Of a stretch of DNA of 64,000 bases, positions 1 to 17,573 are shown piece by piece. Every line of letters starts with the position of its first letter. Position 1 is the first letter of the stretch. A program made the translations under genes and the position numbers. Below the pieces are notes generated by a model. That model was not told where the DNA came from. It worked only from the letters and a program-made list of their open reading frames with translations, and searched no databases. The DNA lies in NCBI GenBank assembly GCA_002441245.1, contig DJVP01000008.1, positions 106,540 to 170,539 on the forward strand, in the 5' to 3' direction. This DNA is from Candidatus Omnitrophica bacterium UBA6253. GTDB lineage: Bacteria > Omnitrophota > Gorgyraeia > Gygaellales > Profunditerraquicolaceae.

Positions 1-75
1 GAGCCTACGGAGATAGGCCATGAAGCCAAGATTAAAGAGCGTCTGGAAAAAATACGCAAGGAAGATAAAGGATAA
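1..75 (+). CDS. 3' end of an upstream CDS (partial, enters from window start)
   Basis: Frame-1 reading runs in from the window edge (…KIRKEDKG) and stops at TAA 73-75. 24 residues are too few to assign a family. Confidence 0.3.
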   Translation, partial: EPTEIGHEAKIKERLEKIRKEDKG

Positions 76-81
76 GCAAAA

Positions 82-3000
82 ATGGTGTCGGCAATGTTAA
101 TATTGGCGGTTTTAGGCGTAGGGATGGTTATTTATGCTGTCTTTGGAGTATTTAGCTCGCCGAGTGAAACAGGGGTTAAAAAAAGCGATAAAAAGCCAAC
201 TCTATCAGATGACCCGAACAAAGAACAAAAAATACAACGACTGCAAAAGCAAGTCTCTGATTTAGAGAATGAATTAAGCCAGATTGAGATTGTGCATGAG
301 AAAGAAAAATACGAATTTATAGCAGCTAAAGAAAAAGAGGCTAGTTTTTCCGATGAGCTAAAACGCAGAGAAGAATGGGTGGCCAAAGCGGAAGCGGAAT
401 TATCCAAGATAAAGCCGGAGAACCTGGATTTAAAGAATAAATTTATCGCCAAAGAAAATGAATTGCAGGAGGAATTTGCTAAAAATGTTAACTTGTCACG
501 GGAGATCCGTGAAATCAAGGTTTCTTTAGAAGCAAAAGAAGCAGAGGCCAAGGCTAAGGAAGAGCAAGTGCAAATACAAAAGCATCAGATTGAAAAGCAG
601 ATAAAGGATATTAATGAGTATTTGGCAGTTATTGCCGAGTTTAAGCGCAAAGAGAAGATCAGCGAATGGATTCCTAAGTCAGAGTTTAATAAATTGAATG
701 AAGAATATACCCAATTAGAAAAGGATTTGGAGGCCAGCCAGGAAAGATTAAAGAGTTTTGCTGAAGAGATTGCACATCTTCGCCAAGGGTTAAAAACAAA
801 AGAACCTCCGGTGGAAGAAATTAAAAAAGAAGAAGCCCCGCAAAAAGAATCTCCAGCAGAAACAGTTCAGAAGGCAGAGGAGGCCCCAAAGGAGGAAACC
901 CCGGTAGAGATTGAGCAAGAATTATCAGGATCCTTAAAAGAAGAAGATCATCCTGTAATAGCTGAGCAAAAGGAAGAAGAGTCCAAGGTAAAGCCACAGG
1001 CAACCCCGCGTATAAGTCTGGACAAGGTAAGGAATATCGGGATCATGGCGCATATTGATGCTGGTAAAACTACTACTACTGAAAGGATACTTTTTTATAC
1101 CGGCCGGTCATATAAAATCGGTGAGGTGCATGATGGTGCTGCAACCATGGATTGGATGAAGCAGGAGCAGGAACGCGGCATAACTATTACTGCTGCAGCT
1201 ACTACCTGTTTTTGGAAAGATCACCGGATCAATATTATCGATACCCCCGGACATGTTGATTTTACAGTTGAAGTGGAACGTTCTTTGCGTGTTTTGGATG
1301 GGGCTGTCGCGGTATTTTGCGCCGTTGGCGGAGTGGAACCGCAATCAGAGACAGTATGGAGGCAGTCCGATAAATATCATGTTCCCAAAATTGCCTTTAT
1401 AAATAAAATGGACCGCACCGGCGCCGACTTTTTTAGCGTATTAAACGGTATCGAAAAAGATTTGGGGGCTAACGCTATCCCTTTAGAGATTCCTATAGGA
1501 AGTGAAGATAAATTCCGTGGCGTGATTGATTTAATCGACATGAAGGCTTATATTTACGATGAAACATCTTTGGGTAAAGAATTTACTGTCACTGAAATTC
1601 CAGAGGAGTACAGGGAGCAGGCGATAAAATACCGGCACATTATGGTAGAGCGTGCAGTCGGCTTAGATGAGAATCTTATGAAGAAGTTTTTGGAATCAGA
1701 AGAATCAATTACGCAAGCTGATTTGTATCAAGCTATCCGCCAGGGAACTATTTCCAATAAGATGGTTCCGGTTACCTGTGGGGCATCTTTTAAAAATAAG
1801 GGGGTACAGAAATTATTAGATACTATTGTTGCTTTCCTGCCTTCGCCGCTAGACCTGCCGCCGGTAGAAGGCGATGATGCAAATGATCTGCAAAAGAAAT
1901 TACAGCTTAAGGCGGATATCAAAGAACCTTTTTGCGGTCTGGCTTTTAAGGTGCAGGCTGATCAGCATATGGGTAAACTTGTTTATGTTCGGGTGTATTC
2001 GGGAATTTTATCTACAGGTACATATATTCTTAATGTGCTGAAAAATAAGAAAGAAAGAATCGGCCGCATTGTACAGATGCATGCTAACCAGCGTGAAAAT
2101 ATCGATTATGCCTTTGCCGGTGATATCGTGGCTGTGCCGGGGTTAGCTAACACTATAACCGGAGATACGCTTTGTGATGTGGATAATCCTGTAATTCTGG
2201 AAGCGATAAAATTTCCTACGCCTGTGATCTCTTTGAGCATTGTGCCTAAAAGCCGTGGCGATCAGGATAAATTGGGTAAGGGCTTGGCCAAACTCACAGA
2301 AGAAGATCCTACGTTTAAAGTAGAAACTGACGAAGAAACTAAAGAGGTTATTCTTACCGGAATGGGAGAGTTGCATTTGGAGATTATTGTTGATAGGTTA
2401 AAAGAAGAATTTGGGGTTGAGGCGATCGTAGGCCAGCCAAAAGTCGCTTATCGGGAAACTATTTTGAAGCCGGCAAGCGCGGAAAGCAAATACATTAAAC
2501 AATCCGGCGGGCGTGGTCAATATGGCCATGTAGTTTTAGAGATCGCTCCCAATAAAGCCGGAGAAGGGTTTGAGTTTATTGATAGTATTAAGGGGGGCGC
2601 AATCCCGCGTTCATTTATCCCAGCGGTTGAAAAAGGGGTAATTGAGGCCATGCAAAAAGGCGTCTATGGAGGATATCCGGTTGTGGATGTAAAAGTAGAA
2701 TTAGTCGATGGCTCATATCATGAAGTGGATTCATCAGAAATTGCCTTTAGAATGGCAGCCATATTTGGATTTAAAGATGCATTCATGAAGGGCAGCCCGG
2801 TTTTTCTTGAGCCCAGCATGAAGCTGGAGGTTTCAACTCCCGAGGAGTATGTAAATGGCTGTGTAGGGTTTATATGTTCGCACCGCGGGAAAATCTTAAA
2901 CATAGATGCTAAAGCCAATCAAAAGATCATCTCAGCTGAGGCGCCTTTAGCAGAGATGTTTGGATATGCTACTAATTTCCGTTCGCTTTCCAGCGGTCGG

Positions 3001-3105
3001 GCCAATGCTACTATGGAGTTTGATAAATACACCCAGGTTCCCGGTGAAATTGCCCAGAAAATTCTTCTAGAAAGGCAGAAACAAAAAGGAGCCACTGGGA
3101 GCTAA
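82..3105 (+). CDS. fusA: EF-G family translational GTPase with ~310-aa N-terminal extension (predicted TM helix + K/E-rich coiled coil)
   Basis: The C-terminal ~690 aa has G1 [10 protein letters not shown]3 [12 protein letters not shown], the EF-G domain IV loop SGGRGQYGH, and domain V. The N-terminus [24 protein letters not shown] is hydrophobic, followed by a long E/K-rich heptad region. The ORF is continuous with no stop. Confidence 0.8.
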
Positions 3106-3197
3106 TCACATCCGATATTGACAGGCATTGCCTTGGTGCGTGTTAGGTAGCTCAAATTGCGCGGGTGTTATCCATGTAGATAAAAGGAGGATAAGGC

Positions 3198-3737
3198 ATG
3201 AAGAAACTGTTTGTGGTTTTATTAACCTTGTGTTTGATTAACTGCTATGGAGGAATCTTGGCTATGGACGAAAAGACTGTGGTTTTAGAAACTAATCAAG
3301 GGAATATTGAGATTAAATTAAAAGTTGATGTTGCGCCCAAGGCGTGTGAGAATTTTGTTAAATTAACAGAAAAAGGTTATTATAACGGTTTAATCTTTCA
3401 TCGTGTAATTAAAGGTTTCATGATTCAAGGTGGAGATCCTACGGGAACCGGCATGGGCGGAGAGTCGATTTGGGGTAAGCCTTTTGAAGATGAAGTTACT
3501 CCGGCAGCTAAATTTGACAGCCCGGGGATCTTAGCCATGGCCAATTCTGGTCCAAACACAAACGGGAGTCAGTTTTTTATCACCTGCGCCAAAACCCCTT
3601 GGTTGAATATGCGCCATACTATATTCGGTGAAGTTATTTCAGGTTTAGAGGTTGTAGAAAAGATTGAAAATACTCCGGTTAATGCCGAAGACCGGCCGAT
3701 TACTGAGCAAAAGATCATTCGGGCTTATATTAAATAA
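3198..3737 (+). CDS. cyclophilin-type peptidyl-prolyl cis-trans isomerase, secreted (signal peptide)
   Basis: Contains FHRVIKGFMIQGGDP, GESIWG and SQFFIT cyclophilin motifs. The N-terminal hydrophobic segment is signal-like. RBS AAGGAGG lies upstream. Confidence 0.85.
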   Translation: MKKLFVVLLTLCLINCYGGILAMDEKTVVLETNQGNIEIKLKVDVAPKACENFVKLTEKGYYNGLIFHRVIKGFMIQGGDPTGTGMGGESIWGKPFEDEVTPAAKFDSPGILAMANSGPNTNGSQFFITCAKTPWLNMRHTIFGEVISGLEVVEKIENTPVNAEDRPITEQKIIRAYIK

Positions 3738-3770
3738 AATCCAGCCTTAAAATCTCCCCATAAACAAAAA

Positions 3771-3796
3771 GGGCCCTAACTGCTAGGGTCCTTTTT
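3771..3796 (+). terminator. rho-independent terminator after PPIase gene
   Basis: Stem gggcccta/tagggtcc (one G-U) with loop actgc, followed by TTTTT. Confidence 0.6.
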
Positions 3797-3913
3797 GGAG
3801 GGGATAATCCTCAATGGCTTTCGCTATCGCCGTCCTCCGCTTCAGTTAACAAAAAAGAGTAACCCAAGCATGCCACATAAAAAATAAAAATCAAGGGGGT
3901 TTTAAAGTTTTTT

Positions 3914-3927
3914 AGAAAGCGCTTTCT
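3914..3927. promoter_or_regulatory. 14-bp perfect palindrome AGAAAGCGCTTTCT upstream of giant gene (candidate operator)
   Basis: An exact inverted repeat in the 287-nt intergenic region, about 100 nt upstream of the 4025 start. Confidence 0.3.
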
Positions 3928-4024
3928 TAAAAAATAATTTTTAGCCTTGTAATCGCTTACCTATATAGCATACTTATCTTATTAAGGCCGATGAGCCGCT
4001 AGAGTTGTTAAAAAAGCTTAAATA

Positions 4025-7000
4025 ATGAAAAACAAATTTCCCAAGGTAGTTTATTTTTTACTTTGTTTTCTGCTTATCTTTGAGCAATCCGGATTTGCTC
4101 AAATAGCCGGACAGCTGGATATCTCCGGATATTTTACCGGTCTGCGTAATGTACTAAGCCAAGATAAATTTCGGCCTTTACACTTAAGATATCTTGCCTA
4201 CGACAATGTCAATAACAACTTTAAGCTGCTTTTAGATAAAGGCGATTTTGGCAAAGCGCAAGGATTATCTCAGGATGGGGCTGTTCCTGGGGAGAAGTTG
4301 GAAAGTTCAACCAAAGAGCTTTTAAACTATTTCTTTATCGGCATCTCTTTGCCTAATGATAGCTTTTGGGTTAACCTCCGGCCTGATTCTCCGGATAATA
4401 TTATAGATCCCTATTTGGCCCAGACTGATGTAGGCAAGATTCTTCTTGAGGCTGACTTGCAATTAAAAAAGGATACCGCAAGCTTTACTTCTCCGCAGAC
4501 CAGAGAAGGTAAAGAATATTGGGATAAACTCTACAAGAAGTCGGAAGAACTTTTTGGTGCAGAATCCATAACCATTCCTACTTTAACCAGGCCTTGGATA
4601 GTACCGAATGAGATAATTATAAGAGAGTCAACCGATAATGCGTATATTTACAAAGCAACTCTTAAAGTAATGCTGGAGCAGGATTATCTAAAAGACTCGA
4701 AAATCTACAATTTTACCGATGAAAGATTTAAACAGCTTAATGAATATGCATCTGGATTGATCAGGAAGAATATTCTCCCTAAGCTAAATAAAGATATAAA
4801 CACCGCCAAAAGATACGCACCTTTAAGGCAAGTTTATTATTCGCTTATCCTCGCGCAGTGGTTTAAACAGAAGTTTTCCGGCAGAAGCGGGCTTTATAGC
4901 AATCTTATCGACAAAATGAACTTAACCGGGCTTACTTCTAAAGATTCATGGTCTAAAGCCGTTTATTTTCAGGCTTATCAGAAATCATTCAAGGAAGGTG
5001 AATATAGCATTAAAGAGCCTGTCTATACCATTAAAGGGCAGACTATTAGAAGCTATATGAGCGGGGGCATAAGCCTTGGGGGAGAGGCTATGAGAGGAGC
5101 GATAAGATCTGGAGTGAAGATTGCAGGTAACCCACTCATGCCAATAGCTGTTATTAATCCTAAAGGAATTTCAGGTGAGTTCCTCCCGAGTGGCCAAATG
5201 CAAATCGATCCATATTCAGGAAGTATAAATATTGAATTTGAAAATGCCCCGCAAGCCAGCTCTCCGGTAATTGAACAGTTGCCGGTTACCCAAACTGATA
5301 TTAATATGGCCAAGTATATAATTGGCCATATTAACTCCCGACCTCTTGAGCCCGAATCAAGATATAGCTTGAATGCGGAATTAGAGAAAGAACCGACCCT
5401 TCCTTCTCACATTGTAGTTAGGCTTAAGGAAAATATAGGGGATGGCGGAGAGAAGATAGGCAGACGGGTATTGGATTTAGATGTAAGGGCGGGCGGCACA
5501 AGATTAATTATCGGCCCTTTTAATCTCTATAATCTTAGTGATAATGGTTTAGGTTCACAGATATTTGGTATCTTGGGCCAGGCAATAAAAGATAAAATTC
5601 CCGAAGTATTTGTTGGATATGTGACTAATAAGGAAACCCTGGAAAAGCTACGCATAGCAATAATTAGAGACGGCAAAGCAGAATATTTAGATAAAGAGGA
5701 TAATTGGAAGAAGGCAGAATATAAGGCAATGAATCGGGCTGCTGAAGATGAGATATTAAGCGAGGTAGTTGCCCAAACTCTTTGGGGTAGTTTATTAAAG
5801 CGGCTTGGTTTTGATAACTTTGACATCAGGGTTGACTTAAAAGGCAGAAGTATTACTGGCCTTCAGGCTCTTGGGTATATCCCCAGCCCGGAAGAGATGG
5901 AAAATAAACCAACGGCCATATTATCCATAACGGCCACAAAAAAATCTTCCAGTTCGCCAATTACAACTATAGATGTAATTCGTGACGATAATCAATTCCT
6001 TCCAAAAGGCAGAACAGAAATTTTAAAAGCCGATCTTAATGTATGTTTGGTCGTTGTGGCTATGGACAAAGACGGTAACAGGTTTATGGCACATTTTCTA
6101 CCTAGCGGCCATATTCAGGGGGGTCTTTCTAACCCGGATCTCGTTAGATACTATTTTGAAACTCATTTGGAAAAGATGTTGCAGGATATGCCGAAAGATA
6201 ATGTTAAGGTGGCAATAATTTCTTCAACAAAAGATGATAGTTTAAAAGGACTGTTAGCAGAGTTGGAAAAAAACGGTCCTGCCCCATATTTAATTACTCT
6301 TGAAGATATAGAAAACTTTCTTAAGAAGCGGAATATAAATGTTCCTTTGGAGCAGAAGGATGATAAGGAATACATGAAAACAGTTACGTTTGACCAGGAA
6401 GGTAATGTGAAGATTGTTTATTTGGATGCTAAAGGGAAAGATAAAGAAAGAATTATTCAGCTTGCGGGAGTAAGTTCCGCATCCTCACCAGTAGTTTATT
6501 CGGGAATCAGGGGTGCGGTAGAAAACTTACCCGCTTTTTCGTCGATTCAACAGTCAACAGCCAGCTCGCCGGTTAAAAAACAGAAGCTTGTTTCTTCCAA
6601 TCTCAATGAGTTGAGAGCTGAATTTAATGCCTATCTAAAGAACGAAGGGTTGGATCAGTATGGTAATCTCAAAGGTTTATTTTCAAATGAAACCATGGAA
6701 ATCTTAATAAATGACCGTTCAGCCAAGCCAGTTTTTTTACAGGTACTTGAAAAATCAGACACGGAGTCTTTGCAATTCAGGGACTTAGGGCCCGCAAGGC
6801 AATTATTGGGTTACCAGGATATTGAAAAAGTTAAAGAGTTAATTTCTTCTTACAGCGTTATTGGCATTGGAAGCGTCAAGCTAGCTAATGAATTGGCAGG
6901 AAAAGACAAGAAGGTTGTAGTTGGAATTACAGACCGTTATACCTCTGAGGAATTTACCTTGATTCCTAATTACCGGGTAGCAAACAACAGGAGATGTTAT

Positions 7001-10000
7001 ATCCCGCTTCCCGGAGGACTGTTTTTATCAATAAAAGGTTCAGGGCAAAATTCCTATAGCAATAGACCAGCGTATTATATTAATGACAGAAAAGGAAAAC
7101 GCGTTGAAGGCGCCGTTGGTATAGATGAAATCTCTGAATTAGGAAACTTAGCGGGTGTTAGTTTAAGAGAGTCTGGCATGTCCATGGATTTGGGTTATCT
7201 TCCCATCAATAATAAGTTGATCGGGTTGGAAGGCGCTAAGGAAGAAAATGTAGCGCTTGTGTTTAGCTTAAGCCTGGATTATCATCGCTTGTCAAAATTA
7301 CCCCAGATAATTGCAAATAACGGGTTAGGATTTTTATGTGAGAGGATATCCGCGGTATTGGATGCGATAGGAGAGTTAGATAATCTAACCGATAAAATGC
7401 ATATTAAATTATCATCAGACAGGATACTAAAGCCTGATCAGCTTATGTTGATAATAATGCTGAATATGGGCAAGACTGAGGGGTATAAACAGAACAATGG
7501 GCTGTATCATGAAACTCTTCACGATCAGGATGTTGATTTTACCGGAATTACTTATGATGTGGAAGAGCTTATTGGGACTCAATCCCCGGAAAATTCCGGT
7601 AAAAATAAGGAGCTGTATCTTAACGGAATTAGTCAAAGGGTTAAGATGTTATTAAGAATGCTTAATAACAAAGATACAGTGTTTTTATTCCCGAACCCGG
7701 TACAAACATTAAGAGTATTATTTAAAGGGTATTTTGAGAATTTAAGCGAAGAATACCTGAATCTGCTGGAAAATAATCAGAATGGCCTTGCTGAAATATT
7801 TCAGCCGTTGTCTAGCCAATACAGCCAGAAATGGTTTAGTATTTTCGGTAAAAATAGCCCAGAAGAGGTATCAGCTGAATTTAGCAAGCTATTAAAGGAA
7901 GAATTAGAAAGACGTGGTAGGGATATCTCTAAGGGGTCAAATCTCGCCAGCTCGCCGGTTACGGAATTGCGCGAGGCTGTGCAAAAATTGCACAACAAAG
8001 AATTTAATATTAATGGCGGGGTATATGTGATCAACATTGAAAAAGGCAATTCTATCTGGGATAGCAGGATTGTTTTAAAGAATAAAGATAATCTAGAGGT
8101 GGGGCATTTTGATCTTGATACAAAAAGAGACGCTATCAATAACGGCGGAATGTTAAATGTTGCGGAGGGGGAGAGAGGGAGGGGCTTTGCGGTATTTATC
8201 TTAAGTAAATTAAGAGAGGTCTTCCCTAAGGGTAAGGAGCTCATTACGGAAATTGTACACGAGGAATCTCTGGAATCCCTGAAGAATAATGGGTCAATTA
8301 ATGTGGTCCCGATAGTGCAATTATTCAATACTGCCGGCTGGGAACTTATCGCTGCCGGCTATTACGACGGTATCGGCCAGTATCATGAGAGAGATTTTGC
8401 CGAGCAGATGAGCGTGGATGAAAGCAATGGAGAAGGAGGAACCGTAATTGCCAGATTCAAACCTAAAATCGCGCAGGCATATTTACCCGGGTTTGATTAT
8501 CTTTCTTCCGCTTCTTCGCCGCTGGGGCCGGATACTCAGGTAAAGATTAATGAAGCAAAATTGTTTAATTCTAGGGAGTTTGGCCTTATTAGAAAACCCG
8601 GGATTTCCATTGATTTATCTCAACAATTTTCCAGACGACACGTTGTTATAGGGGATATCCATGGTGATTTTGAAGGTCTTAAACAGGACCTTAGAGATGC
8701 GGGGTTAGTAGATATGGGCGGAAACTGGATTGGCGGGGACACTGTGTTAATCCAGATGGGGGATATGATAGACCGCGGAGAACAGTCATTTGAGACTTAT
8801 CAGTATCTTTCTGAGCTAAGGTCAAAAGCCCGGTTTCAGGGTGGAGACGTGAAGATGTTGTTAGGCAATCATGAAAATATGTTTTTCCGGGGAATGTCGG
8901 GAGATAGCAAGCAGTTCTCTGATTGGATAAATAATCTTGGTAGTAGCGAGTTTAAGAATATTTTGCAGGATACAATAAAAAATAAAGGCATTGGAATAGC
9001 CAGGAGAATGATTTTGACCGGAGAATCCGGTGAGTTTGCAAAATGGAGGGAACTTTATCTTGGGTTCTCCGAAGATATTAAAAAAGGGGAAATTCAGGCA
9101 GCCTATGAGGAATCAGGGGTGTTGTTTGTTCATGGAGGAATAACAGCCAGGAATAAACATAGTGTTAGCGCTAAAGGAGAAGCAGATTTCTTGAACCGGC
9201 AGTTGGCGGTTAAGAACTTTGACGGGGTAAGGGGTGCGCTGTGGAATAGTTTTGGGTATGAGGTTGACGGCGAAGGAGTAGATTATTTACAAATAGTCGC
9301 TCATACTCCGGAATTGAGAGAGGGCGCACAGGTAAGAGTTTCTCCTAATGGTAGAGTTGTGAATGTTGATGTCGGGCATTGGAAGGGTTACGGTGGCAAC
9401 CGCGGATATGCTGAGATTAAAGGTAACAGGCTTCAGGCCTATGCTTTGGTAAAAGACGAAGCTGTTTCTTCTGCGGCAGACGTTTTTTTTGTAGATAAAG
9501 TCAATAGAGCTTTGTTAGAAAATCCCCAGTATCCGATGCGCATGGTTGAAGTTGCTAATCCTGAATACGGCCTGCGTAATCCTAACGAGGAAGGATTAGG
9601 TTTACACGGCACAGATTTGACTAAACTTAAAAACATCCTGGAGAAAGGGTTAGGCGTAGGTCAAGAGGCCAAGGCTGTTTTTCTGGGCGTTAATCAAAAA
9701 GGAGAGCCGTTTACCCGGAATGAAGCTTATTTATCTTTTGGTAATGTTAATTCTCCGGGGAAAGTAATCCTGGTTTTTGATGTTACTAATGTGGATGTTT
9801 TAAGTAAATGGGATTCGGGGAAAAGAATAGCCATAGGTATAGAACGTATTAATAAGGAAGCTGTAATTGGAATAATAGCAAACATAAAGGATAAAGAAGA
9901 GATTAAGGATATAGTCGGCAACAGGCGCATCCCGGTATATTTCTTTGAACCAAAATTCCCAGGGTTAAAGAGTTTATCTAGCGCCAAACTGCGGGACGTT

Positions 10001-12103
10001 ATTGAGAAAATAAATGAAATTGAACAAGAGAATTATATCTTGTCGCTTAAGGTTGGTTCTATGGAAGAGCAAAAGCGCATAGAGGGAGAACGCGGGGATA
10101 GGATGCGCGAACTGTTGGAGCAAATGACTCCGGAACAGCTAACAGCTTTATCGTCAGTTTCAGAAAGATCCTCCTCAGAAAAGACCGTTTCTTCTCCATT
10201 GGAAGAAATTATAGTATTGGCGCGTACTGTTTTCACCCGCGATCCCCAGGTTGAGTTAAATGGATTATTTGAAGATTATTCGAGCCAACGAAAGAGGTTG
10301 CTTAATTTATATGACGGAGTTGCAGGGATTGCTAAGAAAATCGCCAAGATGAATCCTGGCGTTGTGTTGTATCCGGCAAGTGGCAGTGATATTTCTGCCG
10401 CGGCATCCTATGCGGATACAATAGTAAGCATTGATAATCAGGATATTTTTACGGTTATTAATAATTTTAATTTATTTTTGGATAAAGAAGAAGCGCTTAA
10501 GGAGCAGATAAATAGCTATTTAGAGAAAAAGCTCGAGCTAGGTTTTAATTCCTCAGGCATCAGGCAGGGTTTTATCGAGTATCTTGCGGAATTAGTGTTG
10601 TTAGGAGCAGATTTAAGTACATTTAAGATAGCGGATGATCGATTCTTAGGCGATAATCGCGTTACTACAGTGGAATTTAGCATTGTGTATAACAATGGCT
10701 CAGAGCGTAAAATTCGCCATACGCATATTAAATATGTATTTGACGGCCAGCCTTTACCAGAGGATATATATGGCGAGTTAAAAAAAGTAATTGGGGACAG
10801 GGCAGATGTTTTATTATTATCTAAAGCTGGTGCTGACCTGGCTGGAGATAAGAAGTGGGTGGAGCCGATTAGCAATATATTGGCTCCGGGGACAACTATT
10901 GTTTCTGACTCTGTTTTAAATATCGCTTCTGCTAAGAAATTAGGTGTTTCTGGAAAAGATGTCGGGAACTTAGGTTTGTCGAGAAAGAATAACTATGGCT
11001 ACGCCGATAAATCAGAGAATTTAAATTTTTACGAGATACCGCTTGCCGCCTCTTCGGCTATCCAGCAGCCAAGGGTGGAGCCAAAAGAAGATCTAGGGTT
11101 TATTTCCATTAGTAATGGAGAAAAATTGTTCATGCGTAAAGGGCAGGAAGAAAATATAGTTTCAATAGCATTTGATAATAAGGATGGTGAACAAATTGGC
11201 TTTGTTGATATAATGCTTAGAGAGAGTCTTATAAATTACATATATATAGATCCAAGATTTAGAAGCGAGGGTTATTCCAAGATTATTTTGGATACCATTT
11301 TAAATAAATTACAGGATCAATCATTTATGGGCAGAGAATTTAGTTTTGTTACCTTGTATGTACAGAATCCCTTGTTAGTGGGGTATTTATTGGAAAGAAA
11401 ATTCATCCTGAATCCTTATACCCCGGATGAGCAGAAACTTATGATCGAAGTTATAATACCTAAAAAAGAAGCAAAAGAAATAAAGAACGAAGATAGTATT
11501 CCTTTATACGTGAAGGATCCTGCGAAAAGAGATGGTATTAGAGGCTACGTGAACAAGATGGGATTTAGATTAGTGGAACAACCTATTGAAGGCGAAACAA
11601 GCAACGTAACTATATATGTAAAATATACACTTTATTTCTCGGATAAAAATAGTAATACTCAAATTAACAGCGCTTCACCTGTTTATAACGAAGGACAGAG
11701 AACAGGCGGAATTGACTTTCGCGCGCTACCTATAGCCAGACAACCGGCATTGATTAAGCAAAAGGTCAACGAAAGCTTTATCCATTCGATTCCGTTAGCC
11801 CAGCTAAATAGCGAATGGCTTCAAATAGAGAATATGCTCGCGGCAGGTATTACGCCGTCAAGCGAAAGAATTAAAGAATATCTACAGTCCTGCTGTCAAA
11901 AACAGGATTTTAAGCCGGATATTGATAAAATACTGTCTTGTATTGCCGATATACTCAGGCTGGAAGAAGAACGAGTATCTAGTACGGATATATCTTTAAA
12001 AGAAATGTTGGCACTTTTAGAATCAGCTAAGCCGACTAATGAAATGCAACTTGCATTAACGCAGATTACGGTAGAAGCTAAAGAACCTGGATTAATAGAA
12101 TAA
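4025..12103 (+). CDS. giant secreted multidomain protein (2692 aa) with calcineurin-like metallophosphatase (PPP-type) domain and GNAT-like domains
   Basis: Signal peptide MKNKFPKVVYFLLCFLLIFEQSGFA. The central region has GDIHGD, GDMIDRG and GNHEN phosphoesterase motifs. GNAT motif-A-like RGRGFAVFIL and RSEGYSKIIL segments are present. A recurrent (A/S)SSPV motif is noted. Confidence 0.8.
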   Translation: MKNKFPKVVYFLLCFLLIFEQSGFAQIAGQLDISGYFTGLRNVLSQDKFRPLHLRYLAYDNVNNNFKLLLDKGDFGKAQGLSQDGAVPGEKLESSTKELLNYFFIGISLPNDSFWVNLRPDSPDNIIDPYLAQTDVGKILLEADLQLKKDTASFTSPQTREGKEYWDKLYKKSEELFGAESITIPTLTRPWIVPNEIIIRESTDNAYIYKATLKVMLEQDYLKDSKIYNFTDERFKQLNEYASGLIRKNILPKLNKDINTAKRYAPLRQVYYSLILAQWFKQKFSGRSGLYSNLIDKMNLTGLTSKDSWSKAVYFQAYQKSFKEGEYSIKEPVYTIKGQTIRSYMSGGISLGGEAMRGAIRSGVKIAGNPLMPIAVINPKGISGEFLPSGQMQIDPYSGSINIEFENAPQASSPVIEQLPVTQTDINMAKYIIGHINSRPLEPESRYSLNAELEKEPTLPSHIVVRLKENIGDGGEKIGRRVLDLDVRAGGTRLIIGPFNLYNLSDNGLGSQIFGILGQAIKDKIPEVFVGYVTNKETLEKLRIAIIRDGKAEYLDKEDNWKKAEYKAMNRAAEDEILSEVVAQTLWGSLLKRLGFDNFDIRVDLKGRSITGLQALGYIPSPEEMENKPTAILSITATKKSSSSPITTIDVIRDDNQFLPKGRTEILKADLNVCLVVVAMDKDGNRFMAHFLPSGHIQGGLSNPDLVRYYFETHLEKMLQDMPKDNVKVAIISSTKDDSLKGLLAELEKNGPAPYLITLEDIENFLKKRNINVPLEQKDDKEYMKTVTFDQEGNVKIVYLDAKGKDKERIIQLAGVSSASSPVVYSGIRGAVENLPAFSSIQQSTASSPVKKQKLVSSNLNELRAEFNAYLKNEGLDQYGNLKGLFSNETMEILINDRSAKPVFLQVLEKSDTESLQFRDLGPARQLLGYQDIEKVKELISSYSVIGIGSVKLANELAGKDKKVVVGITDRYTSEEFTLIPNYRVANNRRCYIPLPGGLFLSIKGSGQNSYSNRPAYYINDRKGKRVEGAVGIDEISELGNLAGVSLRESGMSMDLGYLPINNKLIGLEGAKEENVALVFSLSLDYHRLSKLPQIIANNGLGFLCERISAVLDAIGELDNLTDKMHIKLSSDRILKPDQLMLIIMLNMGKTEGYKQNNGLYHETLHDQDVDFTGITYDVEELIGTQSPENSGKNKELYLNGISQRVKMLLRMLNNKDTVFLFPNPVQTLRVLFKGYFENLSEEYLNLLENNQNGLAEIFQPLSSQYSQKWFSIFGKNSPEEVSAEFSKLLKEELERRGRDISKGSNLASSPVTELREAVQKLHNKEFNINGGVYVINIEKGNSIWDSRIVLKNKDNLEVGHFDLDTKRDAINNGGMLNVAEGERGRGFAVFILSKLREVFPKGKELITEIVHEESLESLKNNGSINVVPIVQLFNTAGWELIAAGYYDGIGQYHERDFAEQMSVDESNGEGGTVIARFKPKIAQAYLPGFDYLSSASSPLGPDTQVKINEAKLFNSREFGLIRKPGISIDLSQQFSRRHVVIGDIHGDFEGLKQDLRDAGLVDMGGNWIGGDTVLIQMGDMIDRGEQSFETYQYLSELRSKARFQGGDVKMLLGNHENMFFRGMSGDSKQFSDWINNLGSSEFKNILQDTIKNKGIGIARRMILTGESGEFAKWRELYLGFSEDIKKGEIQAAYEESGVLFVHGGITARNKHSVSAKGEADFLNRQLAVKNFDGVRGALWNSFGYEVDGEGVDYLQIVAHTPELREGAQVRVSPNGRVVNVDVGHWKGYGGNRGYAEIKGNRLQAYALVKDEAVSSAADVFFVDKVNRALLENPQYPMRMVEVANPEYGLRNPNEEGLGLHGTDLTKLKNILEKGLGVGQEAKAVFLGVNQKGEPFTRNEAYLSFGNVNSPGKVILVFDVTNVDVLSKWDSGKRIAIGIERINKEAVIGIIANIKDKEEIKDIVGNRRIPVYFFEPKFPGLKSLSSAKLRDVIEKINEIEQENYILSLKVGSMEEQKRIEGERGDRMRELLEQMTPEQLTALSSVSERSSSEKTVSSPLEEIIVLARTVFTRDPQVELNGLFEDYSSQRKRLLNLYDGVAGIAKKIAKMNPGVVLYPASGSDISAAASYADTIVSIDNQDIFTVINNFNLFLDKEEALKEQINSYLEKKLELGFNSSGIRQGFIEYLAELVLLGADLSTFKIADDRFLGDNRVTTVEFSIVYNNGSERKIRHTHIKYVFDGQPLPEDIYGELKKVIGDRADVLLLSKAGADLAGDKKWVEPISNILAPGTTIVSDSVLNIASAKKLGVSGKDVGNLGLSRKNNYGYADKSENLNFYEIPLAASSAIQQPRVEPKEDLGFISISNGEKLFMRKGQEENIVSIAFDNKDGEQIGFVDIMLRESLINYIYIDPRFRSEGYSKIILDTILNKLQDQSFMGREFSFVTLYVQNPLLVGYLLERKFILNPYTPDEQKLMIEVIIPKKEAKEIKNEDSIPLYVKDPAKRDGIRGYVNKMGFRLVEQPIEGETSNVTIYVKYTLYFSDKNSNTQINSASPVYNEGQRTGGIDFRALPIARQPALIKQKVNESFIHSIPLAQLNSEWLQIENMLAAGITPSSERIKEYLQSCCQKQDFKPDIDKILSCIADILRLEEERVSSTDISLKEMLALLESAKPTNEMQLALTQITVEAKEPGLIE

Positions 12104-12105
12104 TA

Positions 12106-12178
12106 AGGGGCGTCCTGCCTTTTAAGATCTCATCGGCCTTGAAGGGTATCCTTGAACGAACGCCCCTTTATTTATCTT
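12106..12178 (+). terminator. putative terminator/structured 3' element after giant gene
   Basis: An 8-bp stem aggggcgt/acgcccct encloses a long loop and is followed by the U-rich ttatttatctt. Confidence 0.35.
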
Positions 12179-12191
12179 CCCAATATTTGTC

Positions 12192-12219
12192 TTGCAATAA
12201 ACTCCTCAGAGGATAGAAT
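12192..12219 (+). promoter_or_regulatory. sigma70-like promoter for uvrD-like gene
   Basis: TTGCAA, a 16-nt spacer, then TAGAAT, about 20 nt before the ATG at 12240. Confidence 0.35.
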
Positions 12220-12239
12220 AATATGCACAAAATATCCTC

Positions 12240-14267
12240 ATGAATAAAAAAATAGATTATAAAAACGAACTTAATAAAGCGCAGCTGGAGGCGGTCGAAT
12301 CAATTAATGGCCCGTATTTGGTGATTGCCGGTGCTGGAAGCGGAAAAACACGCGTCTTAGTGCATCGGGTGGCCTATCTAGTTGAACAGGGGGTCAGGCC
12401 GGACCAGATCCTATTGCTTACCTTTACGCGCAGGGCAGCTGAGGAGATGCTGCGCCGGGCAAGCCTGCTTTTAGATGAGCGCTGCAAAAAGATATCCGGA
12501 GGCACCTTCCATTCTTTTGCAAATATGATCTTAAGGAAATATGCCAAGCTCCTGGAGATTAACAACAATTTTACTATTCTTGATCAGGCAGATGCTGAAG
12601 ATACGGTAAACTTAGTACGCACACAATTGGGTTATAATAAATCCGAAAAACGTTTTCCACGCAAACACGCAATCTTAGAAGTCATCTCTAAAAGCGTAAA
12701 TAAATCCGAAGATATCTCCGACGTACTTTATGATGAATACCCCCAGTTTATGGAGTTTGGCGAAGAGATTAAGAATATCCGCCAAGAATATAATAAATAT
12801 AAGCGTCAAAAATCACTCTTGGATTATGATGATTTGTTGGTTTTTTTGAAGAACCTGCTCAGCAAGCATGAGGATGTGCGCGCAAGCCTTTCTGTCAAGT
12901 ATAAATACATTATGGTTGATGAGTACCAGGATACCAATAAGCTTCAGGCGCATATTGCCTGTCTTTTGGCGGCAGACCATACTAACATTATGGTAGTTGG
13001 GGATGATGCCCAAAGCATTTATTCTTTCCGGGGGGCGAATTTTAAGAATATTATTGATTTCCCGAAGATCTTTAAAAATACCAAGGTTATTACTTTAGAA
13101 GAAAATTACCGTTCTACCCAGCCGATTTTAAACCTGACTAACGCCGTTATCAGTCAGGCTAAAGAAAAATTCGAAAAACACCTTTACACCAAAAAAAAGG
13201 AAGGCAATATGCCGATTTTCCTGGATTGCCCGGATGAAAATTCCCAATCCCGTTATGTCGCGAATAAAATACTTGAATTAAGGGAAGAAGGGGTAGGCTT
13301 AAAGGATATAGCCGTACTTTTCCGTTCAGGTTGGCATTCTAATGATTTAGAAATTGAACTTGCCAGCCGCAATATCCCTTTTGCAAAATATGGCGGCCAG
13401 AAGTTTGTGGAAGCAGCGCACATAAAAGACCTTTTAAGCTATCTGCGTATTGCCTATAATGCGCTCGACCAGGTGAGTTGGCTACGTGCTCTTTTGTTGA
13501 TTCCTAAAATAGGCCCTAAAACTGCAACTAAAATTATTGAGACGGTTATAGATGATACTAAAGACAAGGTGTGGCTGGATAAAAACGGGGAATTAGTCAG
13601 GTTGCTTGAATTGTTGCAAAGCGTAAATTGCCAGCGCGATGCACCGGCCAAAATAATCGAGAAATTTCTTAGCTATTATCAGCCATTATTAAAGATTAAG
13701 TACGATGATTTTAATAAACGGTTAAATGATCTGGATTCGTTATTGAGAATCGCTGATCGTTATAAAACAACAGAACAATTCCTGGTGGATATGGCTTTGG
13801 AGCCCCCGGAAAGAAGTCTGGTTGAGGCAGGCAAGAGAGATAGGGATGATTCCCCGCTTATTCTGTCAACCATACATTCAGCAAAAGGTTTGGAATGGCA
13901 TACGGTATTTTTAATTTATGTCGCTGAAGGCCATCTCCCTTCTTATCTATCGCTGGAGACAGATGACCAGATTGAAGAGGAGCGCCGTTTATTTTATGTC
14001 GCGGCTACGCGGGCCAAGGTAAATTTATTCCTATTAAAACCGCATATTGATAGATCCCCCAGGAGTTTTATGGATGGGGGCGGTTCAGTGTTTACCCAGG
14101 TTTCCCGTTTCCTGGATCAAGGCGGCCTGATTAATAAATTCGTAGATGTGCAGGGGGTTGGAGATTCAGGCGAATGGGATGACGTGGAATTGGAAGATAT
14201 TATTGGGGAAAAAACGAAAAGAAATAAAGAATTCTTTGAAACCATGGAGGAGTATTTCAGGGAATAA
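12240..14267 (+). CDS. uvrD: UvrD/PcrA-family ATP-dependent DNA helicase
   Basis: Walker A AGAGSGKT, DEYQDT (motif II), GDDAQSIY, and the C-terminal VATRAK motif. Confidence 0.85.
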   Translation: MNKKIDYKNELNKAQLEAVESINGPYLVIAGAGSGKTRVLVHRVAYLVEQGVRPDQILLLTFTRRAAEEMLRRASLLLDERCKKISGGTFHSFANMILRKYAKLLEINNNFTILDQADAEDTVNLVRTQLGYNKSEKRFPRKHAILEVISKSVNKSEDISDVLYDEYPQFMEFGEEIKNIRQEYNKYKRQKSLLDYDDLLVFLKNLLSKHEDVRASLSVKYKYIMVDEYQDTNKLQAHIACLLAADHTNIMVVGDDAQSIYSFRGANFKNIIDFPKIFKNTKVITLEENYRSTQPILNLTNAVISQAKEKFEKHLYTKKKEGNMPIFLDCPDENSQSRYVANKILELREEGVGLKDIAVLFRSGWHSNDLEIELASRNIPFAKYGGQKFVEAAHIKDLLSYLRIAYNALDQVSWLRALLLIPKIGPKTATKIIETVIDDTKDKVWLDKNGELVRLLELLQSVNCQRDAPAKIIEKFLSYYQPLLKIKYDDFNKRLNDLDSLLRIADRYKTTEQFLVDMALEPPERSLVEAGKRDRDDSPLILSTIHSAKGLEWHTVFLIYVAEGHLPSYLSLETDDQIEEERRLFYVAATRAKVNLFLLKPHIDRSPRSFMDGGGSVFTQVSRFLDQGGLINKFVDVQGVGDSGEWDDVELEDIIGEKTKRNKEFFETMEEYFRE

Positions 14268-16016: not shown

Positions 16017-17573
16017 ATGATTCTTAATATAGTAATAATAATATTTATTGCTTTGGTTGCTACGTATTCCGGTTATTCCTTAAGGAAATATGTTGCCGAG
16101 AAAAAGCTGAAAAGCGCCGAGGCTGAAGCTGAGCATATTCTGGAGGTAGCCAATAAAGAAGTTTTGGACAAGCGCCGGGAAGCGGAGCTGGAAGCAAAAG
16201 ATCTTTTGCATCGCATGCGCCAGGATTTCGAGCATGAGACCAAAGATCGCAAGCAGGAGATTGTAAATCTTGAAAAAAGGTTAACGCAAAAAGAAGAGAA
16301 CATTGACCGCAGGCTGGATCTTTTAGAGAAAAAAGAAAAGGAAATTGACGCCCGCAACGACAACCTTAAAAAGCAGGAAGAAGCTTTAAAGTCAAAAGAC
16401 AATCAATTACATGCCTTGGTTGCAGAAGAAAAAGAAAGACTGCAGAAGATTTCTTCTCTTTCGGCTGAAGAGGCAAAGCAGATCTTGCTTGGCCGTCTTA
16501 ACGAAGAATTAAATAATGAGAAAGCGGTATTTATCAGGCGGCAGGAGGAAGAGGTGCGTAGTATCGCGGATAAAAAAGCCCGTGAGATTTTAAGCTTGGC
16601 TATCCAGCGTTGCGCAGCAGAGCATACCGTAGAGTCAACCGTAAGCGTGGTAACGTTGCCTAATGACGAAATGAAGGGCCGGGTTATCGGCCGGGAAGGC
16701 AGAAATATACGCGCTTTAGAGATGGCAACAGGCGTAGATGTAATTATTGATGATACTCCCGAGGCAGTTACTTTATCTGGTTTTGATGCTGTACGCCGGG
16801 AGATTGCCCGTTTAAGCCTGGAAAAACTTATCTCTGACGGAAGGATTCACCCCGGGCGCATTGAAGAGATTGTAGAGAAGACCAAGAAAGAGATGGATGA
16901 GAAAATACGCGAGGAAGGCGAACGGGCGGCTTTTGAAGCAGGGGTTAATGGCCTGCATCCTGAAATAATTAAACTTTTAGGAAGGCTTAAATACCGAACC
17001 AGCTATGGTCAAAATGCTTTGCAGCATTCCAAAGAAGTTTCCTTTTTATTGGGGATAATGGCTTCGGAGCTGGGGCTTGATTTTAAATTGGGTCGCAGGA
17101 TTGGCCTTTTACATGATATTGGTAAAGCGGTAGATCACCAGGTTGAAGGCACGCATGCTAAGTTAGGAGCGGATCTGGCGAAAAAATACAATGAAACACT
17201 TGAGGTTGTAGGGGCGATTGAATCGCACCACGAAGAAGCTGTGCCGCAGAGTTTATATGCGGTTTTAGCTGTAGCTGCAGATGCTGTCAGCGCCGCCCGC
17301 CCCGGAGCAAGGCGGGAAACCCTTGAAACGTATGTCAAGCGTTTAGATAAACTGGAGTCAATCGCCAACCTTTTTAAAGGGGTTGAAAAATCTTTTGCAA
17401 TTCAAGCCGGCAGAGAGATTCGCGTAATTGTCCAGCCGGAAAAGATAAATGATAATGATGCCACTGCTATGGCCAGGGATATACGCAAGAAGATCGAGGA
17501 AGGGATGGAATATCCGGGTCAGATTAAAGTCACAGTAATTCGCGAGATGCGCGCTATTGAGTACGCCAAGTAG
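16017..17573 (+). CDS. rny: ribonuclease Y
   Basis: N-terminal TM anchor, a coiled coil, a KH domain ([15 protein letters not shown]) and an HD domain (LHDIGK…H). Confidence 0.9.

Follow-up and report, generated by a model that had tools for sequence, protein, structure and literature searches.

Does the open reading frame (ORF) at positions 82..3105 of a 64,000-nucleotide stretch of Omnitrophota DNA encode a membrane-tethered relative of elongation factor G (EF-G), or is the long extension ahead of its EF-G part an artefact of the predicted start site? The stretch, hereafter the window, comes from Candidatus Omnitrophica bacterium UBA6253 (GenBank assembly GCA_002441245.1, contig DJVP01000008.1, positions 106,540 to 170,539), and all window features described below lie on the forward (+) strand. 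The ORF, as given in the list of ORFs of the window, starts with ATG and encodes 1007 amino acids plus a stop codon. A sequence-only reading of the window had offered both explanations, and the evidence assembled here supports the anatomy and the history that the first of them implies: an ORF with the same succession of transmembrane (TM) helix, coiled coil, linker and EF-G is conserved among homologues, the charges around the TM helix follow the positive-inside pattern, and ordinary short EF-Gs form a separate clade, a member of which shares its contig with a long form in four instances. The product is a single polypeptide consisting of a TM anchor, a coiled-coil stalk, a linker and a whole EF-G.

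The C-terminal part of the protein (residues 311–1007, 1012..3102) is a full canonical EF-G, as judged from Pfam, TIGR00484, comparison with the solved structure 1dar and an AlphaFold2 model. The EF-G equivalog model TIGR00484 scored 1039.7 bits against a cut-off of 659.4, with positions 5–689 of its 691 aligned to residues 311–998, and the Pfam families PF00009, PF22042/PF03144, PF14492, PF03764 and PF00679 all scored above their cut-offs within residues 315–993. The five domains of EF-G are all there: G (with G') at 1024–1845, II at 1927–2178, III at 2212–2433, IV at 2437–2793 and V at 2803–3060. In a comparison with sequences of the Protein Data Bank (PDB), the EF-G part scored 879 bits with Thermus thermophilus EF-G (1dar) and 845 and 844 bits with the EF-Gs of E. 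coli and S. aureus, and only 400 bits with T. thermophilus EF-G-2 (1wdt). Models of EF-G2 and EF-G-like paralogue families were rejected on their scores (NF009377, 503 against 890; NF058620, 470 against 1000; NF009892, 185 against 640 bits), as were the tetracycline ribosomal protection proteins (NF012153, 383.5 bits against a cut-off of 775) and RF3, LepA and BipA, whose models stayed below their cut-offs.

The residues that translocation by EF-G requires have been preserved. The P-loop, DTPGH, NKMD and both domain-IV tip loops, including SYHEVDSS, were invariant in an alignment of 70 sequences (A323–T331, D387–H391, N441–D444, G809–H816 and H880–S885). Seven positions separated the long forms from short EF-Gs at the 85% level (R/H518, K/E534, A/I677, V/A683, F/Y845, N/G925 and K/Q948), none of them catalytic. 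Conservation per domain was alike in both clades and lowest for G' (0.70 in long and 0.83 in short forms). Against solved EF-Gs, the short form scored 3–7% above the long form, indicating a modest extra divergence of the latter. By its motif content, the EF-G part thus appears to be catalytically intact.

Ahead of this EF-G lies the extension that the sequence-only reading had pointed out. The motif AHIDAGKTT starts at residue 323, so that 322 in-frame residues precede it, the frame upstream of it is open for 324 codons, and the body of EF-G begins at residue 311. The predicted hydrophobic N-terminal helix was found again, with a mean Kyte–Doolittle value of 2.63 over 19 residues (about 6–24). 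Likewise, the heptad pattern could be recovered: hydrophobic positions in residues 46–245 recurred with a period of 3.5 residues at 30–34 times the median spectral power. As for the coiled coil of about 280 amino acids, the coiled coil itself stands, but its length does not; it spans about 190 residues (48–236) and is followed by a disordered linker of about 75 amino acids.

The AlphaFold2 model, built from the 70-sequence alignment (mean predicted local distance difference test value, pLDDT, of 72.9), divides the extension into consecutive segments. The first is a TM helix (residues 2–24, 85..153), for which hydropathy, the model and the charges of homologues predict an N-out/C-in orientation. 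It is followed by a basic, disordered juxtamembrane segment with the motif KKSDKK (residues 25–47, 154..222; pLDDT below 50 over 25–46, assigned also from its lysine and arginine counts). The first coiled-coil helix (residues 48–193, 223..660), which carries the invariant E92, W99 and H168, rests on a pLDDT of 71–85, on the periodicity and on the substitution rates given below. The helix is broken at SEWIPK (residues 194–199), within the best-conserved block of the extension (residues 192–217, 655..732), and resumes as a second helix (residues 200–236, 679..789). The P/E/K-rich linker (residues 237–310, 790..1011) is variable in length and sequence, as seen from alignment gaps and substitution rates, and is modelled as disorder with a pLDDT of about 30 (residues 237–312), the EF-G fold beginning at residue 313. 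Residues 1–310 matched no curated Pfam or NCBIfam family, giving only sub-threshold matches to generic coiled-coil models.

The same layout recurred in homologues. In a protein search, more than 100 clusters (965–1059 amino acids, 97–100% query coverage and 62–100% identity) matched the query, and those with an organism name were labelled Omnitrophica or Omnitrophota. A scan of one genome per species of the Genome Taxonomy Database (GTDB) detected 548 relatives, and the best 80 loci were analysed; almost all of these were labelled Omnitrophota, with some mislabelled or bearing generic labels. In 78 of the 80, the frame upstream of AHIDAGKTT was open for 311–409 codons, mostly with an ATG start, giving products of 975–1092 amino acids. 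About 63 further long forms with this layout came from a metagenome scan, and such a recurrence is not due to chance. Altogether, 141 long forms were called (986–1092 amino acids, covering 97–100% of the query), and across these roughly 141 loci, nearly all labelled Omnitrophota, the upstream frame was open for 290–400 codons. Some contigs with an Omnitrophota-type long gene (e.g., those of loci L003, L004, L013 and L033) are labelled 'uncultured Planctomycetales' or 'Planctomycetales bacterium', and one cluster member (P0247) is labelled Portnoybacteria; these labels are likely taxonomic mislabels or the result of mis-binning. One long form (L063, JAPLLS010000080.1, about 7871–9124) stops after about 413 amino acids, through a premature stop codon or a frameshift inside the G domain, which is likely an assembly error or a pseudogene.

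The open frame in so many independent loci bears directly on the start-site artefact, according to which the true product would be an EF-G of about 697 amino acids made from an internal non-ATG codon, the upstream 930 nt being non-coding or a separate gene. The window gene, as the earlier reading had noted, has no ATG at the expected start of EF-G; there is no in-frame ATG, GTG or TTG 30 to 7 codons before AHID, and the only ATG nearby is that of M322, within the beta1/P-loop segment NIGIMAHID. Nor was there at the junction, near position 1000 of the window, any start preceded by a Shine–Dalgarno (SD) motif. In-frame ATG, GTG or TTG codons at positions −30 to −7 occurred in 31 of 78 loci, that is, at 0.54 per locus, where the remainder of the extension would lead one to expect 0.67, and a junction start with an SD-like motif was seen in only 4 of 78 loci, the window not among them. 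The ATG of the long ORF itself is preceded by an SD-like AAAGGA at 67–72, 9 nt ahead of it, the upstream gene, rarA/mgsA, ending with its stop codon at 73–75 and leaving a 6-nt spacer (start context, 67..81).

The junction also retains a trace of how the fusion was made. Short EF-Gs of the phylum begin with M-[A/S/T/P]-R-x-[I/V]-x-L-x-K-[V/L]-R-N-I-G, and at the corresponding positions long forms have x-P-[K/R/Q]-[I/Y/F]-x-L, with no conserved Met, Val or Leu codon. As x-P-[K/R/Q] stands in place of M-[A/S/T/P]-R, the two parts are joined exactly at the former EF-G start codon. A stop codon or frameshift between the coiled coil and the G domain, which would separate the two, was encountered at the junction of only 1 of about 141 long loci: L131 (Ga0194127_10005598) has two in-frame TAA codons at the linker/EF-G junction (4870–4900). 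Compared with L037, which is otherwise identical over this stretch, L131 has lost one base and gained another 12 nt away, and this −1/+1 pair, which creates the two stops, most likely stems from faulty assembly or sequencing.

Apart from the stops in L131, what speaks for the artefact is the annotation by the NCBI Prokaryotic Genome Annotation Pipeline (PGAP), which reports EF-Gs of 696–716 amino acids for the window gene and for several related metagenome-assembled genomes (MAGs). The 697-amino-acid 'elongation factor G' MDD5690446.1 (P0037; JAQUMA010000002.1, MAG GCA_028718365.1, Candidatus Omnitrophota) is 100% identical to our protein over 69% of the query, and its start is the ATA codon of I311 (1012..1014 of the window), read as M; the 936 nt that follow rarA/mgsA in JAQUMA010000002.1 (L001, 9065–10000) are left unannotated. 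However, the PGAP starts are inconsistent between MAGs: in related ones the protein begins with MAEQPLKEE..., MPVPQTALEK..., MPQTALEK... or M322, and in the same clusters the genes called by JGI and ENA encode about 1000 amino acids. The NCBI pipeline trims these genes to canonical length with non-ATG starts, and thereby systematically hides the long architecture in Omnitrophota MAGs, making it invisible in many public annotations. With the frame open in about 140 independent loci, substitution rates in the extension well below neutrality, and twelve invariant extension residues, we reject the artefact as highly improbable.

These rates were obtained by the Nei–Gojobori method (NG86) for ten species pairs, as ratios of nonsynonymous to synonymous substitutions (dN/dS). 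The ratio was 0.04–0.14 in the coiled coil, 0.08–0.36 in the TM and basic segments, mostly 0.2–0.5 in the linker, with one noisy value of 1.3, and 0.02–0.08 in the EF-G part. Thus, the full length of the long form is maintained by purifying selection. The twelve invariant residues are E92, W99, H168, W196, P198, K199, F202, L205, N206, E208, E229 and L233. The block that starts with KISEW[IV] (residues 192–217) had 80–99% column identity over 78 species, and the W-x-P-K motif was present in 134 of 141 long forms. The linker alignment showed low column identity and many gaps, with 98–202 amino acids between the W motif and the start of EF-G in different homologues; P309, just ahead of the EF-G body, is invariant and aligns with residue 2 of the short forms.

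The N-terminus was hydrophobic almost throughout the family, 135 of the 141 long forms having a 19-residue hydropathy of at least 1.6; in the other 6, an ATG had been imposed downstream of a GTG or TTG start. A hydrophobic stretch at the extreme N-terminus could also be read as a cleavable signal peptide, in which case the protein would be exported. Its charges, however, are the reverse of those of a Sec signal peptide: the 141 sequences had 0.0 lysines or arginines ahead of the hydrophobic core and a cluster of them after it, with a mean of 4.8 in the next 20 residues. This positive-inside pattern indicates an N-out/C-in anchor with the stalk and EF-G placed in the cytoplasm, and such a topology, with the rest of the protein cytoplasmic, is what we predict. 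Moreover, we know of no substrate outside the cytoplasm for a factor that depends on GTP and the ribosome, which counts against export as well. Export after signal-peptide cleavage therefore seems extremely improbable.

The long forms coexist with ordinary EF-Gs in at least some genomes. The complete 1.5-Mb Omnitrophota chromosome CP070797.1 (L070) carries a short EF-G of 698 amino acids at 6307–8403 and a long one of 1051 amino acids at 9998–13153. In L093, a short EF-G (436–2532) and a long one (from 4384) share a contig; in L095 the two are in tandem (2435–4534 and from 4674); and the 303-kb contig Ga0222627_1000003 has a long (L094) and a short gene (L165) about 250 kb apart. More than 120 short homologues of about 698 amino acids, with 75–85% mutual identity, were collected, and the JGI, ENA and NCBI calls agree on them; most of those with an organism name are labelled Omnitrophica or Omnitrophota, and a few bear the labels Aureabacteria, Spirochaetes or Susulua. 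The mean identity in the EF-G domain was 73% among long forms, 77% among short forms and 68% between the two groups, and in neighbour-joining trees one split parted all short from all long forms with a bootstrap of 99/100. As the extension of L070 is, moreover, homologous to that of the window gene, this split indicates that the fusion arose once and that both genes were already present in the ancestor of the long-form lineages. The long form is thus an ancient paralogue of EF-G, confined to one phylum.

The pair L094/L165 is 79.7% identical in the EF-G domain, compared with 71–72% for other long–short pairs, and this closeness may reflect gene conversion between the paralogues. The short EF-G genes L083, L084, L153, L159, L161, L162, L174 and L176 lie very often within about 100–300 nt of a contig end, which suggests that just upstream of the short gene the sequence is difficult to assemble or differs between strains. 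The short clade was also considered as the fusA of the str operon and did not fit that role: the ten short genes with a readable context stand alone, with their own SD motif and no rpsG upstream. S12–S7–EF-G–EF-Tu operons are described in some complete Omnitrophota genomes (preprint 10.64898/2026.06.07.730766), so that a third EF-G copy is possible.

Whether the large clade that holds the window gene also has a free EF-G was approached through accession numbers, by means of low power. Matching the accession block of MDD5690446.1 gave no neighbour among 13 short EF-G accessions, and none of the short EF-G whole-genome-shotgun (WGS) prefixes JAZDHZ, JBDRPW, JAIPGM, JBDRJV, JBDRMM and JAQTSA equals a prefix of a long-form locus, a match that is of equally low power. 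This would suit an explanation in which the lineage has the long form as its main or only EF-G, tethered as a precursor or reservoir; free EF-G would be released by proteolysis of the linker, and the anchor would serve storage, regulation or partitioning in very small cells and not action on the spot. Besides the second EF-G missing from the low-power search, the linker would fit such a role, being long, disordered and poorly conserved, yet always there; so would the invariant P309 just ahead of the EF-G body, and the dN/dS of the EF-G part, which is constrained like that of a housekeeping gene. However, both copies were present in the ancestor of all long-form lineages, the linker has no conserved cleavage motif beyond P309, which is itself matched by residue 2 of the short forms, and a disposable pro-region would not need conservation nearly as strong as that of the stalk. 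As the search for a second copy was low in power, its failure says little. Altogether, we regard release from a reservoir as unlikely, although it deserves to be kept in mind.

A related possibility is that the window's large clade lost its free EF-G and that the anchored protein is itself the sole translocase. We consider this rather unlikely too, a shade more so than release from a reservoir. If it were true, every elongating ribosome in these ultra-small cells would depend on a factor permanently fixed to the inner membrane, and translation would be membrane-proximal as a whole, an arrangement that would plausibly have co-evolved with the giant membrane and secreted proteins of the phylum.

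For the origin of the anchor, an exhaustive phmmer search with residues 1–310 against 1.84 billion representative proteins gave 157 matches, most of them proteins of 210–260 amino acids that align, from their own residue 5 on, to about residue 220 of the query at 22–28% identity. This stand-alone family (about 225 amino acids; e.g., P0350, P0345 and P0419) shares with the extension the TM helix, the basic patch and two tryptophan motifs, 'EW' and a C-terminal 'W-[VI]-[AS]-K-x-E-[YF]'; unlike the long form, its members end soon after the second motif, without linker or EF-G. A hidden Markov model (HMM) of 22 stand-alone proteins (alignment A2) matched the long EF-G extensions over nearly the full length of the model with E values of 1e-39 to 1e-42, and W99 and W196 of the extension correspond in the alignment to W101 and W198 of A2, both nearly invariant. 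The anchor module is thus homologous to an uncharacterised stand-alone family of TM and coiled-coil proteins, for which the fusion provides a Rosetta-stone link to the ribosome. No Pfam model exists for the family, which gave only sub-threshold matches to generic coiled-coil models. No fusion of the anchor module to other domains was present among the phmmer matches, those longer than 340 amino acids with a P-loop being contig-end fragments of long EF-Gs, and a word-indexed search with the family profile returned 7 matches only. On two unrelated contigs (L089, 7625–8705; L090, 632–5668), a stand-alone member is flanked upstream by a gene for an Hpt phosphotransfer protein and downstream by one for an aminotransferase; this may be a conserved context of the family, and one that is unrelated to translation.

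The stand-alone homologues give some weight to a different role of the fusion, in which the EF-G module would be mainly a handle by which ribosomes are docked, sequestered or recycled at the membrane, as in hibernation or in recycling with RRF, with the coiled coil as the scaffold. Stand-alone proteins with the same motifs suggest a membrane scaffold that existed before the fusion, and paralogues of them lie 1–2 kb downstream of the long EF-G gene in L097 (9750–10625), L072 (14020–14904), L029 (6437–6958) and L112 (13975–14775). The lower conservation of the G' domain in long forms points in the same direction. On the other hand, pure docking should relax the residues of the GTPase and of the domain-IV tip, and these are invariant, the seven class-specific substitutions being conservative. 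A docking handle in place of a translocase is accordingly improbable in our view, about as much so as release from a reservoir.

We favour a reading in which the long form would be a working translocase and recycling factor for membrane-proximal ribosomes, and assign it a probability of about 0.6. A single chain combines a complete EF-G with a membrane-anchoring module, fused at the former EF-G start codon, and the EF-G part would still act as the ribosomal translocase and recycling GTPase. With a rise of 0.15 nm per helical residue, the stalk would measure about 27 nm, of which about 22 nm would fall to its first helix and about 5.5 nm to its second. To this the linker could contribute a mean of several nm, and at most about 25 nm when fully stretched, so that the GTPase would be confined to a shell beneath the inner membrane, a few tens of nm deep. 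Such a reach would be ample for the factor-binding site of a ribosome docked at the translocon. Ribosomes at or near the membrane would be served preferentially, for example those making the very long membrane and secreted proteins of the phylum; 94% of the long proteins of Omnitrophota bear a TM segment or a signal peptide (preprint 10.64898/2026.06.07.730766). Most Omnitrophota are ultra-small (PMC10066038), and in cells of about 0.2–0.3 µm across the shell would make up a large share of the cytoplasm. The motif at the kink of the stalk, shared with the stand-alone family, would probably serve oligomerisation of the stalk or binding of a common partner.

Several observations weigh against the tethered translocase. 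Membrane insertion, ribosome binding and GTPase activity are predictions from the anatomy of the protein. All four same-contig pairs involve deep-branching long forms and not the large derived clade that holds the window gene, and matching of accession blocks and WGS prefixes, with its low power, found no second EF-G for MAG GCA_028718365.1. The strong conservation of the motifs suggests that the stalk does more than a passive tether would. The weaker conservation of G' in long forms could mean an altered interaction with L7/L12. Finally, the compared neighbourhoods of long EF-G genes contained no conserved operon partner of the Sec, SRP or YidC type.

Comparison with known systems sets the long form apart from each of them in some respect. 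The five domains, G motifs and domain-IV tip loops of residues 311–1007 are those of canonical EF-G (fusA), but the long form adds 310 N-terminal residues, lies outside the str operon and forms a separate clade. Like EF-G2 of Thermus and Bacteroidota, mtEF-G1 and mtEF-G2/RRF2, it is a duplicated EF-G that, at least in some genomes, coexists with a canonical one; in sequence it is, however, far closer to EF-G1 than to EF-G2 (879 versus 400 bits), with no functional residue diverged. Mitochondrial EF-Gs also carry an N-terminal extension, which is a targeting peptide; that presequence is cleaved, whereas the extension of the long form would be a permanent membrane anchor and stalk. In its design, one N-terminal TM helix followed by a coiled-coil stalk and a catalytic domain in the cytoplasm, the protein resembles RNase Y and EzrA. 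There is no sequence relationship to them, PF12072 having no match in the extension, and the cargo is a translation GTPase rather than an RNase or a division regulator.

That an appendage at this end of EF-G can be accommodated is indicated by engineered proteins. PDB entry names include L9–EF-G N-terminal chimeras (4wpo and related entries), among them several 70S ribosome entries, and the chimeras were reportedly solved bound to the 70S ribosome. If so, the N-terminus of EF-G tolerates fusion and the appendage is no bar to binding, so that by analogy an N-terminal fusion would be compatible with ribosome binding. The chimera is an artificial crystallographic tool, whereas the fusion described here is natural, phylum-wide and membrane-anchoring.

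EF-G is, by textbook account, a freely diffusing translation factor. Full-text literature searches turned up no natural EF-G that carries an integral membrane anchor, the Omnitrophota genome papers that were checked for EF-G terms made no mention of a membrane-anchored one, and no EF-G was found in the supplements of a metaproteome paper that includes Velamenicoccus. Thus, the catalytic core belongs to a known family, and the architecture is new and appears to be undescribed. A tethered copy selectively kept throughout a phylum would imply that the location of elongation or of ribosome recycling matters in these cells. It could offer a handle on localised bacterial translation, on the organisation of the few ribosomes in ultra-small cells and on the synthesis, at the membrane, of proteins of tens of thousands of residues.

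The neighbourhood of the long gene is not that of the housekeeping fusA, which in the str operon lies between rpsG and tuf, and neither EF-Tu nor another translational GTPase was found in the 64-kb window. Upstream, the order of genes is infC–rpmI–rplT–trkA–trkA–trkH–x–pheS–pheT–rarA–[long EF-G], and downstream it is cyclophilin–2692-aa protein–uvrD–DUF5981–nifU–5-FTHF cyclo-ligase–RNase Y–ymdB–GH39–xseA–dxs–PFOR. The upstream neighbour in L001 is likewise MgsA/RarA. Overall, rarA lay directly upstream of the long EF-G gene in 37 of 77 loci, with pheT–rarA typical of the wider clade of the window. The downstream neighbours differed between loci (cyclophilin, uvrD, the giant protein, nifU or RNase Y), and in other Omnitrophota lineages the block DUF5981–nifU–5-FTHF cyclo-ligase–rny–ymdB followed the long EF-G gene directly. 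The giant protein of the window (4025–12103, 2692 amino acids) has a hydrophobic N-terminus, one Metallophos domain and six copies of the motif '[AS]SSP[VIL]' (at residues 411, 642, 819, 846, 1308 and 1496), seemingly at segment boundaries; homologues of it follow the long EF-G gene in 11 of 77 loci. The RNase Y gene of the window is at 16017–17573, and in 8 other loci one lies within about 2 kb of the long EF-G gene.

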